Program-made: the position numbers | DNA from: Escherichia coli O157:H7 | GTDB taxonomy: Bacteria > Pseudomonadota > Gammaproteobacteria > Enterobacterales > Enterobacteriaceae | Direction: 5' to 3' (one strand) | DNA length: 64,000 nt | Assembly: GCF_013167455.1 (NCBI RefSeq) | Contig: NZ_CP038328.1 | Shown here: positions 1 to 3,000 of the stretch, piece by piece | How positions within the stretch are numbered: the first letter of the stretch is position 1 | How the letters are laid out: every line of letters starts with the position of its first letter

Positions 1-3000
1 TTATGGAAATGTAATTGACTCAATAATCGCCGGACGGTGAGGGCTTCCTTTTACCCGAATTCAGCGCGGTGCAGCGCATATACGTGGAGAACAAAATGTC
101 ATTTATTAAAACTTTTTCCGGGAAGCATTTTTATTATGACAGGATAAATAAAGACGACATCGTTATTTACGATATCGCGGTTTCCCTTTCAAATATCTGT
201 CGCTTTGCAGGACATCTTTCACACTTCTACAGTGTCGCCCAACATGCGGTGCTTTGCAGCCAGCTGGTGCCACAGGAATTTGCTTTTGAAGCTTTAATGC
301 ATGATGCAACAGAAGCATATTGCCAGGACATCCCCGCACCACTGAAACGACTTCTTCCTGACTATAAACGGATGGAAGAAAAAATAGACGCCGTAATACG
401 TGAGAAATACGGGTTACCTCCTGTTATGAGCACGCCAGTGAAATATGCCGATCTCATTATGCTGGCAACCGAACGCCGCGATCTCGGGCTTGATGATGGC
501 TCTTTCTGGCCTGTACTGGAAGGTATCCCGGCAACAGAGATGTTCAAAGTGATTCCACAGGCACCGGGCCATGCCTACGGGATGTTTATGGAACGTTTTA
601 ACGAGTTATCGGAGTTACGCAAATGCGCATGAATGTTTTCGAAATGGAAGGGTTTCTTCGTGGGAGATGTGTACCGCGAGATCTGAAAGTGAATGAAACA
701 GATGCTGAATACCTGGTGCGTAAATTCGATGCGCTTGAAGCTAAATGTGCAGCACAGGAAAACAAAGTAATACCAGTGTCAACTGAACTGCCACCAGCAA
801 ATGAAAGTGTTTTGTTATTCGATGCTAACGGAGAAGGCTGGCTAATTGGCTGGCGTTCTCTCTGGTACACCTGGGGACAAAAAGAAACCGGAGAATGGCA
901 GTGGACATTTCAGGTCGGGGACCTTGAAAACGTCAATATCACTCACTGGGCAGTAATGCCAAAAGCACCGGAGGCTGGAGCATAATGACCACTTTTACCG
1001 ACAAAGAACTGATTAAAGAAATTAAAGAGCGTATCAGCAGCCTTGACGTGCGAGACGATATTGAGCGCCGTGCTTATGAAATCGCACTCCTATCTCTGGA
1101 AGTAGAACCAGATGAACGCGAAGCTTATGAATTATTCATGGAAAAGCGTTTCGGTGACTTAGTAGATCGTCGGAGAGCAAAAAACGGCGATAACGAATAC
1201 ATGGCATGGGATATGACTCTCGGTTGGATCGTCTGGCAGCAACGAGCAGGTATCCATTTTTCAACAATGTCACAACAAGAGGTGAAATAATGGAGCCATA
1301 CAGCCTCACACTCGATGAGGCCTGTCATTTTCTCAAGATATCCAGACCGACTGCCATTAACTGGATACGCACAGGGCGTCTTCAGGCAACACGCAAAGAT
1401 CCCACTAAGAATAAATCTCCTTACCTCACAACACGACAAGCCTGCATTGCGGCTCTTCAGTCTCCGCTGCATACTGTCCAGGTGAGCGCGGGTGATGGCA
1501 TAACAGAGGAAAGAAAATGTCACTCTTCCGCAGAGGTGAAATATGGTACGCCAGTTTCACATTGCCGAACGGTAAAAGATTTAAACAGTCTCTTGGAACA
1601 AAGGACAAAAGGCAGGCGACAGAACTCCATGACAAGCTAAAGGCTGAAGCATGGCGGGTCAGCAAACTTGGTGAAATACCTGATATAACGTTCGAGGAAG
1701 CGTGTGTCAGGTGGCTTGAAGAGAAAGCACATAAAAAATCGCTGGACGATGACAAAAGCCGGATCGGATTCTGGCTTCAACATTTCGCAGGAATGCAACT
1801 AAGAGACATTACTGAATCAAAAATTTATTCAGCAATGCAGAAAATGACGAACCGGCGTCATGAGGAAAACTGGAAACTCAGGGCAGAAGCATGCAGAAAA
1901 AAAGGGAAACCTGTTCCAGAATACACGCCAAAACCAGCGTCCGTTGCAACGAAGGCTACGCATCTTTCATTTATAAAGGCCCTACTAAGAGCCGCAGAGC
2001 GTGAATGGAAAATGCTGGATAAGGCACCAATTATTAAAGTGCCTCAACCAAAGAATAAACGGATCCGCTGGCTGGAGCCCCATGAAGCACAAAGGCTGAT
2101 TGATGAATGTCCGGAGCCATTAAAGTCTGTTGTTGAATTTGCACTGGCAACAGGCTTAAGACGCTCGAACATCATCAACCTTGAATGGCAACAAATAGAT
2201 ATGCAGCGCCGGGTGGCATGGATAAACCCGGAAGAGAGTAAATCAAACCGCGCAATTGGCGTTGCGCTGAATGATACTGCATGTCGCGTATTGAAAAAAC
2301 AAATCGGGAATCATCACCGTTGGGTATTTGTGTACAAGGAAAGCTGTACCAAACCAGACGGAACGAAAGCGCCAACAGTAAGGAAGATGCGGTATGACGC
2401 AAACACAGCCTGGAAAGCGGCGCTGAGACGGGCTGGTATTGATGATTTCAGATTTCACGACTTGAGACACACCTGGGCAAGTTGGCTGGTTCAAGCCGGA
2501 GTCCCGTTGTCAGTGTTACAGGAAATGGGAGGCTGGGAGTCTATCGAAATGGTTCGTCGATATGCTCACCTTGCACCTAATCACCTTACCGAACACGCAC
2601 GGCAAATAGACTCGATCCTGAACCCATCGGTCCCAAATTTGTCCCAGTCAAAAAATAAGGAAGGTACTAATGATGTGTAACTTATTGATTTTAATGGTGC
2701 CGATAATAGGAGTCGAACCTACGACCTTCGCATTACGAATGCGCTGCTCTACCAACTGAGCTATATCGGCCCTGAAAGGACATGTTCACGAACGTGAATC
2801 ACGGTGGACAAGGTTAAAACTAACCGGGCGATGCGTCAATGGCCTTGTGAATCAAACGGCTACTTTTGCATCACCCGGTTTTATTTACGCACGAATGGTG
2901 TAATCACCAATGCCGATCCACTTGTAAGTGGTCAGTGCTTCCAGCCCCATTGGGCCACGCGCGTGGAGTTTTTGTGTGCTTACCGCCACTTCCGCACCCA

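Follow-up and report, generated by a model that had tools for sequence, protein, structure and literature searches.

Integration into thrW by way of a 46-bp att sequence has been reported for the Sf phages (PMC3851460), and for P22 the att sequence ATGCGAAGGTCGTAGGTTCGACT has been given, together with an attP that rebuilds thrW (PMC8022706). In Escherichia coli O157:H7 the prophages at this gene have been described as tandem and variable (PMC9997748; PMC8190617). The window analysed here is a stretch of 64,000 nt from E. coli O157:H7 (contig NZ_CP038328.1), and we are confident that its positions 1–2740 belong to a temperate SfV-like prophage lying in thrW, of which they form the end next to the integrase gene (called attL in lambda), and that this prophage has a recombination module of the P22 type. 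A prophage of this kind at thrW is ordinary and has already been described. In our reading the left edge of the window is thus a known SfV-like prophage with a P22-type Int at thrW, a classic hotspot of O157:H7, and its import lies mainly in annotation, where the overlap between xis and int should be kept and not 'repaired'.

SfV, SfII, SfIV and SfI share with the window both the gene order yfdR/DUF551/yfdT-xis-int-attP and the 46-bp thrW core, and positions 1–2740 are 98.3–99.1% identical to SfII, SfIV and SfV over the 2740 bp. The likeness to SfV extends to the HK97-type head and Mu-like tail genes, which are present at 97.6% in the prophage of genomes collinear with the window. The Sf phages differ from the O157:H7 prophage in their immunity region, in their host, which here is E. 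coli O157:H7, and in a gtrA-gtrB-gtr(type) O-antigen cassette after attP, which is absent from the collinear O157:H7 prophages. P22, with L, ST64T and ES18, resembles the window in having an Int of 387 aa, a Xis of 116 aa and a 124-nt overlap between their genes; the 14-nt spacer that follows int in P22 is of equal length, and the 46-bp thrW core is identical. However, the xis-int-att region and that of these phages agree in only about 81% of nucleotides, the homology again ending at 2740, and P22 is a podovirus, whereas the prophage of the collinear genomes is an SfV-like myovirus.

Two further systems are useful for comparison. Sp1 and Sp2 of strain Sakai (CP-933H in EDL933) have in common with this locus the attachment site, the 46-bp repeat, the distal 3.8 kb and the tandem arrangement with the P4-like Sp2. 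Sp1 differs in being a 10.6-kb mosaic remnant, in which int is represented by its 3′ part only (a 975-bp pseudogene) and which carries a lambda-like immunity/replication fragment. Lambda itself has a heterobivalent tyrosine integrase with a small recombination directionality factor encoded directly upstream, and its int and xis genes are likewise transcribed towards att (leftward), int adjoining attL in the prophage. It differs in its core, which is 15 bp long and intergenic and not the 3′ end of a tRNA gene with 46 bp of identity, and in the family of its Xis, the protein here belonging to HTH_17. The CII-type box of the lambda pI promoter, TTGCN6TTGC, is absent from xis in the window and also in phages L and SfI. 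In lambda xis and int overlap by about 20 nt, against 124 nt here.

The junction at thrW

The features at the left end of the window are collected in Table 1; those described from the sequence alone were all found where they had been placed.

Table 1. Coordinates of the prophage end and the adjoining chromosomal genes in the window
Feature	Position	Strand	Evidence
yfdR-like HD-domain 5′-deoxynucleotidase, SfV orf30 homologue, early-left accessory gene	96–632	+	phrog_318, E = 2.5e-108
DUF551 phage protein, SfV orf29 homologue	623–985	+	PF04448, 22.2 bits (cut-off 22); phrog_583, E = 1e-82
yfdT-like phage protein, SfV orf28 homologue	985–1290	+	phrog_660, E = 7e-31; RefSeq name YfdT
xis, excisionase (recombination directionality factor), 116 aa	1290–1640	+	HTH_17, phrog_2907, P22 Xis homology
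Dual-coding xis/int overlap, 124 nt	1517–1640	+	frame of int shifted by 2 against that of xis
int, P22/SfV-type tyrosine integrase, 387 aa	1517–2680	+	PF00589, E = 3e-48
Two tandem GTCCCA motifs, candidate P′-arm arm-type sites of Int, inside int 3′ end	2630–2635 and 2641–2646	+	inferred, motif recurrence only
attL core, 46 bp identical in attP and thrW	2695–2740	.	phage homology ends 2740
thrW, tRNA-Thr(CGU), intact	2695–2770	-	ARAGORN; Rfam tRNA, 71.8 bits
proA and proB, beyond thrW	2885–5253	-	ORF calls and annotation

ARAGORN and Rfam agree on a single tRNA-Thr gene with the anticodon CGU, which identifies it as thrW. Of this gene, the 5′ 30 nt (2741–2770) are chromosomal, and the 3′ 46 nt come from the phage. 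Sequence comparison places the end of the homology to SfI, SfII, SfIV, SfV and P22 at 2740, which is also the end of a 46-bp core identical to the attP core of SfI, SfII and L. The attP core of SfI is annotated over this same stretch, the published P22 att sequence is contained in it at 2711–2733, and the number of chance matches expected for a 46-bp core is zero. The int stop codon is separated from the tRNA's 3′ end by 14 nt (a coordinate difference of 15, from 2680 to 2695), which agrees with the 15 nt noted when the sequence alone had been read. That reading had also proposed an element in thrW that leaves the window to the left, and the stop of the phage identity at the end of the core bears this out. 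A terminator for thrW that the phage might supply was sought beyond the tRNA 3′ end (minus strand, 2640–2700), but the fold there was no better than that of shuffled sequence (z = −0.59).

The sequence shows how the junction is made. Directly after int the phage has, as its attP core, 46 bp that repeat the 3′ end of thrW; recombination inside the 46 bp inserts the phage and leaves an intact tRNA gene with a phage-derived 3′ end of 46 nt, while the far junction keeps the original thrW 3′ end, as a direct repeat. Following the paradigms of P22 and lambda, Int would bind the core and the arm-type sites and carry out strand exchange via Tyr349, while Xis, as a predicted winged-helix HTH protein, would bind the P arm and steer the reaction to excision. 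The reconstructed attP of 411 bp holds four copies of the motif GTCCCA in the same orientation, where about 0.1 would be expected, and all four positions are conserved in phage L despite a divergence of about 20%. These four motifs are candidates for the arm-type sites of Int. In the collinear O157:H7 genome G5295 the far junction has kept 126 bp of the P arm, which are 97% identical to the attP of SfI and SfII.

Early genes, xis and int

The presence of phage early-region genes ahead of xis had been proposed from the sequence, and three such genes do match SfV, as orf30, orf29 and orf28. The bounds of the yfdR-like gene are those annotated in SfII and in RefSeq, the longest ORF there beginning at GTG 69, and its product has weak Pfam matches to YfbR-like and HD_3. 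The stop codon of the yfdT-like gene overlaps the ATG of xis (TAATG).

The xis gene lies directly upstream of int, as it does in P22, L and SfI. Its product is 87% identical to P22 Xis in amino acid sequence over 116 of 116 residues and matches phrog_2907 ('excisionase') over the full length (E = 1e-50). HTH_17 (PF12728) is matched by the N-terminal residues 6–36 with 35.1 bits (cut-off 27), and the score for TIGR01764 is just under its cut-off (25.8 versus 28.8). P22 Xis has reportedly been characterised experimentally, by Mattis and co-workers in 2008. The gene had been read as AlpA/Xis-like; the Xis part of this label holds, the protein being of the excisionase-family HTH_17 type, and the AlpA part was rejected, since HTH_17 was the sole Pfam match and AlpA (PF05930) was not matched at E ≤ 0.01. 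A search for a solved structure related to Xis gave matches in the structure database at chance level only. The longest ORF for xis is 1206–1640 (144 aa). Because homology and a Shine-Dalgarno sequence (GAGGTG) support ATG 1290, the start was moved to that codon; the protein thus probably has 116 aa, and the 144-aa model from ATG 1206 is probably too long. This change leaves the overlap with int as it was.

The match of Int to PF00589 (E = 3.2e-48) covers residues 184–355 and profile positions 1–171 of 172, and the match to the PHROG integrase family spans the full length. Inspection of the translation located the catalytic motifs TGLRR (residue 212; R215), HDLRH (H314/R317/H318), GGWES and RRYAH (residue 347; Y349). 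Relatives in the PDB are HP1 integrase and XerD/XerA. The length and coordinates of int equal those of the curated int genes of phages L, SfI and SfII. The N-terminus, strongly conserved among the relatives compared, has a weak match to DUF6538 (residues 3–44; 20.8 bits, cut-off 27). Scans for CII boxes and sigma-70 promoters identified no int-only promoter of the kind used in the establishment of lysogeny, and a generic scan of positions 1–3000 for sigma-70 promoters and terminators gave counts at or below chance.

The overlap between xis and int

The overlap, put at about 120 nt by the sequence-only reading, measures 124 nt, and the last 41 codons of xis take part in it. Its size had been thought a possible sign that one of the two starts was mis-set. 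The RefSeq annotation (PGAP) does begin int at TTG 1562, which gives a protein of 372 aa and reduces the overlap to 79 nt, and on this view the overlap would be an annotation artefact, either because the true start of int lies at TTG 1562 or later or because the 3′ part of the Xis-like ORF is spurious. In favour of an artefact, 9 of the 41 residues in the Xis tail have changed between this element and phage L, the changes often being non-conservative. When Int was recoded at random with synonymous codons, the xis frame stayed open in 15–51% of cases, depending on the lineage, so that the open xis frame alone proves little.

However, a start at TTG 1562 still leaves an overlap. The sequence itself fixes the stop of xis, and Xis aligns with its relatives over 109–116 of 116 residues down to an identity of 34–42%. 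The overlap exists because the xis stop is late, and not because a start is wrong. At the other end, ATG 1517 has the Shine-Dalgarno sequence GAGGA ahead of it, as has the int start of six of the seven relatives compared (the exception, APSE-8, has AGGAG), and the first 15 residues of Int, MS(L/I)F(R/K)RG..WY.S(F/Y), are conserved as far as APSE-8. Within the overlap, nine of the ten differences from phage L fall on codon position 3 of int, which is position 2 of xis (binomial P of about 4e-4 against equal thirds). The density of substitutions relative to phage L is 8.1% in the overlap, 12.8% in the part that is xis only and 22.9% in the part that is int only. The pattern of substitutions indicates that purifying selection acts on the int frame from ATG 1517 on. 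We regard an artefact as very improbable, and the RefSeq start at TTG 1562 probably leaves the protein 15 codons too short.

The same arrangement is found well beyond the Sf phages. An overlap of 124 or 145 nt is annotated in seven further phages; phages L, SfI and Cronobacter ENT47670 have the identical overlap in their curated records, and overlaps of 124 or 145 nt occur in ε34, Serratia BZS1, HK446 and Hamiltonella APSE-8. It is kept from P22 and SfV to the APSE, Serratia, HK639 and Edwardsiella phages, whichever tRNA is targeted. This distribution indicates that the 124-nt overlap is an ancestral and conserved feature of the P22/SfV-type integrase subfamily. With such conservation, and with a good Shine-Dalgarno sequence ahead of both starts, the suspicion of a mis-set start was not upheld. 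Of the two frames the N-terminal one of Int is constrained, and the C-terminal tail of Xis rides on it.

The C-terminal 41–48 residues of Xis are read in an alternative frame of the sequence that codes for the predicted arm-binding domain of Int. One might therefore see in the overlap more than a historical accident, namely a dual-coding or translational-coupling device that has been selected for setting the ratio of Xis to Int or for giving Xis a tail that contacts Int. We consider such a device unlikely: the Xis tail evolves freely where Int permits, and the upkeep of the open frame is statistically not compelling.

The prophage body in related genomes

The left flank of the element lies outside the window, and we infer its size and completeness from the collinear genomes G5295 and ECP19-2498. 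G5295 is collinear with the window including an extra RHS segment, with one SNP in 4200 bp, at position 168. A direct repeat of the tRNA 3′ end was sought to the left of the window, and G5295 has a second, perfect copy of the 46 bp at a distance of 38,220 bp on that side, ECP19-2498 at 38,222 bp. Further phage genes were sought there as well; about 55 are annotated between the two copies in G5295, and ECP19-2498 is alike. The DNA between the copies in G5295 is an apparently intact SfV-like myovirus, beyond which follows, in tandem, a P4-like satellite (the 'Sp2' of Sakai). The prophage of the collinear genomes is thus about 38.2 kb long; its head is of the HK97 type, its contractile tail is Mu-like and its tail fibre is Pin-invertible. 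In G5295 73% of it aligns to SfV, and the aligned part takes in 17 kb of morphogenesis genes with 97.6% identity. Past the core the homology to SfI and SfII continues for 126 bp and then ends, and no gtr O-antigen genes are annotated there in the collinear genomes. What lies past the 126-bp P arm is an IS3 fragment, an AraC-family regulator, a GIY-YIG gene and the Pin-invertible tail-fibre region. The prophage of these O157:H7 genomes is a relative of SfV from which the O-antigen-modifying gtr cassette has been lost.

With the flank outside the window, positions 1–2740 might instead be the leftover int module of a decayed remnant such as the 10.6-kb Sp1 of Sakai. A mosaic remnant of that size occupies thrW in both Sakai and strain Z570, and deletions among thrW prophages have been reported (PMC9997748). 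However, remnants of the Sp1 type keep only the last ~930–990 bp, mainly the 3′ end of int; their homology to the window begins at 1755 and the DNA upstream differs, whereas the window has a complete int, xis and SfV-type early genes. Both of the two genomes examined that have the window's upstream sequence carry the full prophage of ~38.2 kb, and the adjacent 25 kb is present (at least 80%) in 81 genomes. A remnant is accordingly improbable in our view.

An integrase next to a tRNA gene, together with a small HTH gene, is what one typically sees in a genomic island too, and a genuine P4-like element does lie in tandem further left in related genomes. The element could on that account be an island or integrative element of non-phage origin, carrying an AlpA-type regulator and a P4-type integrase. 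The segment is, however, 98–99% identical to sequenced, inducible phages, related genomes hold a full set of virion genes, and AlpA is unmatched. The island was rejected on these points, and we give it practically no credence.

The SfV-like prophage is only one of the bodies to which this int end is joined. The junction of int end, thrW and proA is present (at least 80%) in 794 of 5426 complete E. coli genomes, against the 81 that have the adjacent 25 kb, and this difference implies that the int module sits on many different phage bodies. The int end/thrW region is 100% identical to many O157:H7 chromosomes. Among individual strains, TB21-1 matches positions 1–4200 perfectly and carries an IS insertion, and Z570 matches the RHS region, its thrW site holding the Sp1-type remnant.

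The int-proximal end of the prophage at thrW

Five closely packed genes, all on the plus strand, lie to the left of the tRNA gene (Table). The Shigella flexneri phages SfII, SfIV and SfV match all of window 1-2740 at 98.3-99.1% identity, while xis-int-att (1290-2740) is matched by SfI at 97.6% and by the Salmonella phages P22, L, ST64T and ES18 at ∼81%. All these matches end at 2740, the end of the 46 bp annotated as 'attP core' in SfI; a 46-bp att site common to the Sf phages, with integration in thrW, has been described (PMC3851460). Since the matches stop at the end of this core, the phage supplies the 3′ 46 nt of the tRNA gene and the chromosome its 5′ 30 nt. 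Thus, the element is integrated in thrW and seen from its xis-int-att end, as the sequence-only reading had it, and judged from these alignments the junction is the int-proximal end (attL) of a P22-Int-type prophage. The layout of int, tRNA and xis had also been read accurately, with 14 nt between the end of the int stop codon (2680) and the tRNA 3′ end (2695).

Int has the catalytic domain, the catalytic motifs and the thrW core with direct repeat of a P22/SfV-type tyrosine integrase; the arm-binding domain is putative and the arm sites are candidates. Xis belongs with the excisionase-family HTH_17 RDFs and is 87% identical to P22 Xis. A profile search gave no Pfam AlpA match to Xis, so that the 'AlpA-like' label of the earlier description should be dropped. 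The anatomy shows no departure from the known system; the int-xis-att module is familiar from the work on P22 and the papers on the Sf phages.

Table. Features of the thrW region; positions are in the window unless a genome locus (L002, ECP19-2498; L009, G5295; L006) is named
Feature	Position	Strand	Support or remark
yfdR-like HD-domain 5′-deoxynucleotidase	96-632	+	phrog_318, E = 2.5e-108
DUF551 protein	623-985	+	PF04448 at its cut-off; phrog_583
yfdT-like protein	985-1290	+	phrog_660
Xis, 116 aa	1290-1640	+	HTH_17, 35.1 bits (cut-off 27)
Int, 387 aa	1517-2680	+	PF00589, E = 3.2e-48
GTCCCA pair	2630-2646		inside int 3′ end, int coding sequence
thrW tRNA-Thr(CGU)	2695-2770	-	ARAGORN; Rfam tRNA, 71.8 bits; sole tRNA gene in window
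Decayed chromosomal genes	∼10663-11386, 14790-16508, 18548-18824		RefSeq, nearly identical strain
naRNA4 (REP-derived nucleoid-associated RNA)	17249-17326	-	Rfam, 64.8 bits (gathering score 59.5)
RHS segment, ∼5.6 kb	∼28869-34518		RHS-core and ISAs1-type transposase sequences
P4-like satellite and distal att region	L009 8506-9895; L006 25600-38545
DNA in the place of gtrABC	L009 9896-15500
GTCCCA pair	L009 9950-9955 and 10015-10020		distal P arm
pinE-associated tail-fibre segment	L009 13637-15855; L002 17225-19443		opposite orientations

The xis/int overlap

The overlap of xis and int, put at about 120 nt in the sequence-only reading and found to be 124 nt (1517-1640), had been taken as a possible sign that one of the two starts is mis-set. 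However, the same geometry (xis 351 nt, int 1164 nt, overlap 124 nt) is present in the curated records of phage L, SfI and Cronobacter ENT47670. The overlap is also kept in more distant relatives, whatever tRNA is targeted: ε34 (145 nt; Xis identity 74%; att target argU), Serratia BZS1 (145 nt; 59.5%), HK446 (124 nt; 42%; thrW-like target) and Hamiltonella APSE-8 (145 nt; 42%; tRNA-Arg). Both starts have a Shine-Dalgarno sequence. The xis ATG at 1290, which overlaps the yfdT stop (TAATG), is preceded by GAGGTG, and the int ATG at 1517 by GAGGA, which six of the seven relatives compared also have, with AGGAG in APSE-8. Int residues 1-15, MS(L/I)F(R/K)RG..WY.S(F/Y), are conserved as far as APSE.

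Relative to phage L, the overlap has a substitution density of 8.1%, against 12.8% where only xis is encoded and 22.9% where only int is. Nine of the 10 differences in the overlap fall at the third codon position of int, equivalent to the second of xis (binomial estimate against equal thirds, P ∼4e-4), and they change one residue in Int and nine in Xis. This pattern indicates purifying selection on the int frame from 1517 onward, with the Xis tail as the tolerant partner. Thus, given the curated phages, the Shine-Dalgarno sequences and the constraint on the int frame, a mis-set start can be set aside; the overlap exists because xis stops late. With the Int protein sequence held, the xis frame stayed open to the observed stop in 15-51% of random synonymous recodings. 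The conserved dual-coding overlap might nevertheless serve a separate function, and the Xis tail might itself be selected.

Curated phage records start int at ATG 1517 and xis at ATG 1290. RefSeq/PGAP places the int start at TTG 1562 (372 aa), which probably cuts off 15 genuine Int residues. The ATG of the longest xis ORF (1206, 144 aa) lies within yfdT and is not preceded by a Shine-Dalgarno sequence, and this start should not be used; it is the model in SfII and some RefSeq records, and a similarly over-long xis (444 nt) is annotated in SfV and SfIV. For identical DNA, RefSeq is inconsistent, giving an xis of 116 aa in one O157 genome and of 144 aa in another (L001 21562, L009 46581).

The prophage body and its tandem neighbour

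The left side of the element, outside the window, was inferred from the O157:H7 genome G5295 and from ECP19-2498. G5295 is collinear with the window at this end and across the strain-specific RHS segment further right, and carries the 46-bp core a second time, without mismatch, at a distance of 38,220 bp leftward (38,222 bp in ECP19-2498). The two att copies enclose what appears to be a complete temperate phage, in which PGAP marks only two pseudogenes. PGAP gives early and lysis genes (repressor/Cro-type switch, replication genes, RusA, Q-type antiterminator, holin/lysozyme/Rz), an iss/bor-type lipoprotein gene, head and packaging genes (HNH endonuclease, terminase, portal, HK97-type protease and capsid) and tail genes (Mu-like sheath, tube, baseplate and a Pin-invertible tail-fibre region). 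None of the collinear genomes was without phage genes on the left and a core repeat at a distance of tens of kb, in keeping with the leftward extension first proposed. The SfV alignment covers 73% of the prophage, with 97.6% identity over 17 kb of structural genes, and 126 bp of the P arm are kept at the far junction, with 97% identity to SfI and SfII. The pinE-associated segment is inverted in G5295 relative to ECP19-2498, which suggests that the Pin invertase is active or was so until recently.

Past the P arm, the Sf phages carry the gtr O-antigen cassette (gtrABC), whereas the O157 prophage has other DNA after the 126 bp, with an IS3-family fragment, an AraC-family regulator and a GIY-YIG gene. 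Because the cassette is absent from the collinear genomes, the prophage, although SfV-like, would not be serotype-converting in the defining sense. For this part of the O157 prophage, an AraC-like protein has been studied as regulating virulence and acid resistance. The window does not derive from strain Sakai, whose Sp1 differs in being a 10.6-kb mosaic remnant that matches the window from 1755 onward only and carries an int annotated as a 975-bp pseudogene, whereas the window int is intact.

Behind the distal att copy, in tandem, lies a P4-like satellite, the counterpart of Sakai Sp2. It encodes a separate integrase and a primase, and also has Psu/Sid-like genes and an 'ABC-three-component' gene set. 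At its far end is a degenerate third att copy (TCCTATTATCG-CACCA); the sequence just past this copy is similar to the spacer downstream of int. The tandem arrangement in the collinear genomes agrees with published accounts in which the thrW prophages of O157:H7 stand in tandem and are prone to deletion (PMC9997748; PMC8190617). That prophages concentrate at thrW in O157:H7 has been documented, and the observation is correct and already well described.

Proposed recombination

The 46-bp core is common to phage and tRNA, int and xis are intact, and both attP arms are kept in the collinear genomes. The steps proposed here follow the P22 and lambda paradigms. Int would act on core-type sites in the 46 bp and on arm-type sites in the flanks. 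GTCCCA occurs four times in the same orientation in the reconstructed attP (∼0.1 expected), at positions conserved in phage L, and these motifs are candidate arm-type sites. Xis, on the P arm and together with Int, would drive excision, and read-through from the early-left operon would extend into xis and int after induction; a search for a lambda-type CII box or a convincing int-only promoter found none. The int gene is convergent on thrW. This arrangement has been classed, for thrW-intH of EDL933, as 'opposite-convergent' in a KplE1 study, with such integrases predicted to lack autoregulation at attL (PMC2951348).

Chromosomal surroundings

The tRNA gene is followed by proA and proB (minus strand, as the tRNA) and then phoE (plus strand); this gene order is that of the E. 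coli thrW-proAB region. Many O157:H7 chromosomes match the first 4200 bp at 100% identity, and at least 80% of the junction is present in 794 of 5426 complete E. coli genomes. As a caveat to the reading of the left side, 80% or more of the adjacent 25 kb is found in only 81 genomes, and one int module is thus carried by several phage bodies. The sole G5295 difference in the first 4200 bp is at 168, T in the window and A in G5295 and ECP19-2498, making residue 25 of the yfdR-like protein Tyr versus Asn.

Further right, the naRNA4 match sits between a rayT pseudogene and yafL. The RHS segment, inside an RHS/VgrG/type VI secretion island, is missing in ECP19-2498 and found in strain 9000, Z-series strains and G5295; because it is present, the window stops short of tRNA-Asp (aspV). 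The decayed genes, whose positions were mapped over from the L001 annotation, comprise prfH and rtcB fragments, a truncated lateral-flagellar flhA beside lafU, and a frameshifted yafQ toxin gene next to an intact dinJ.
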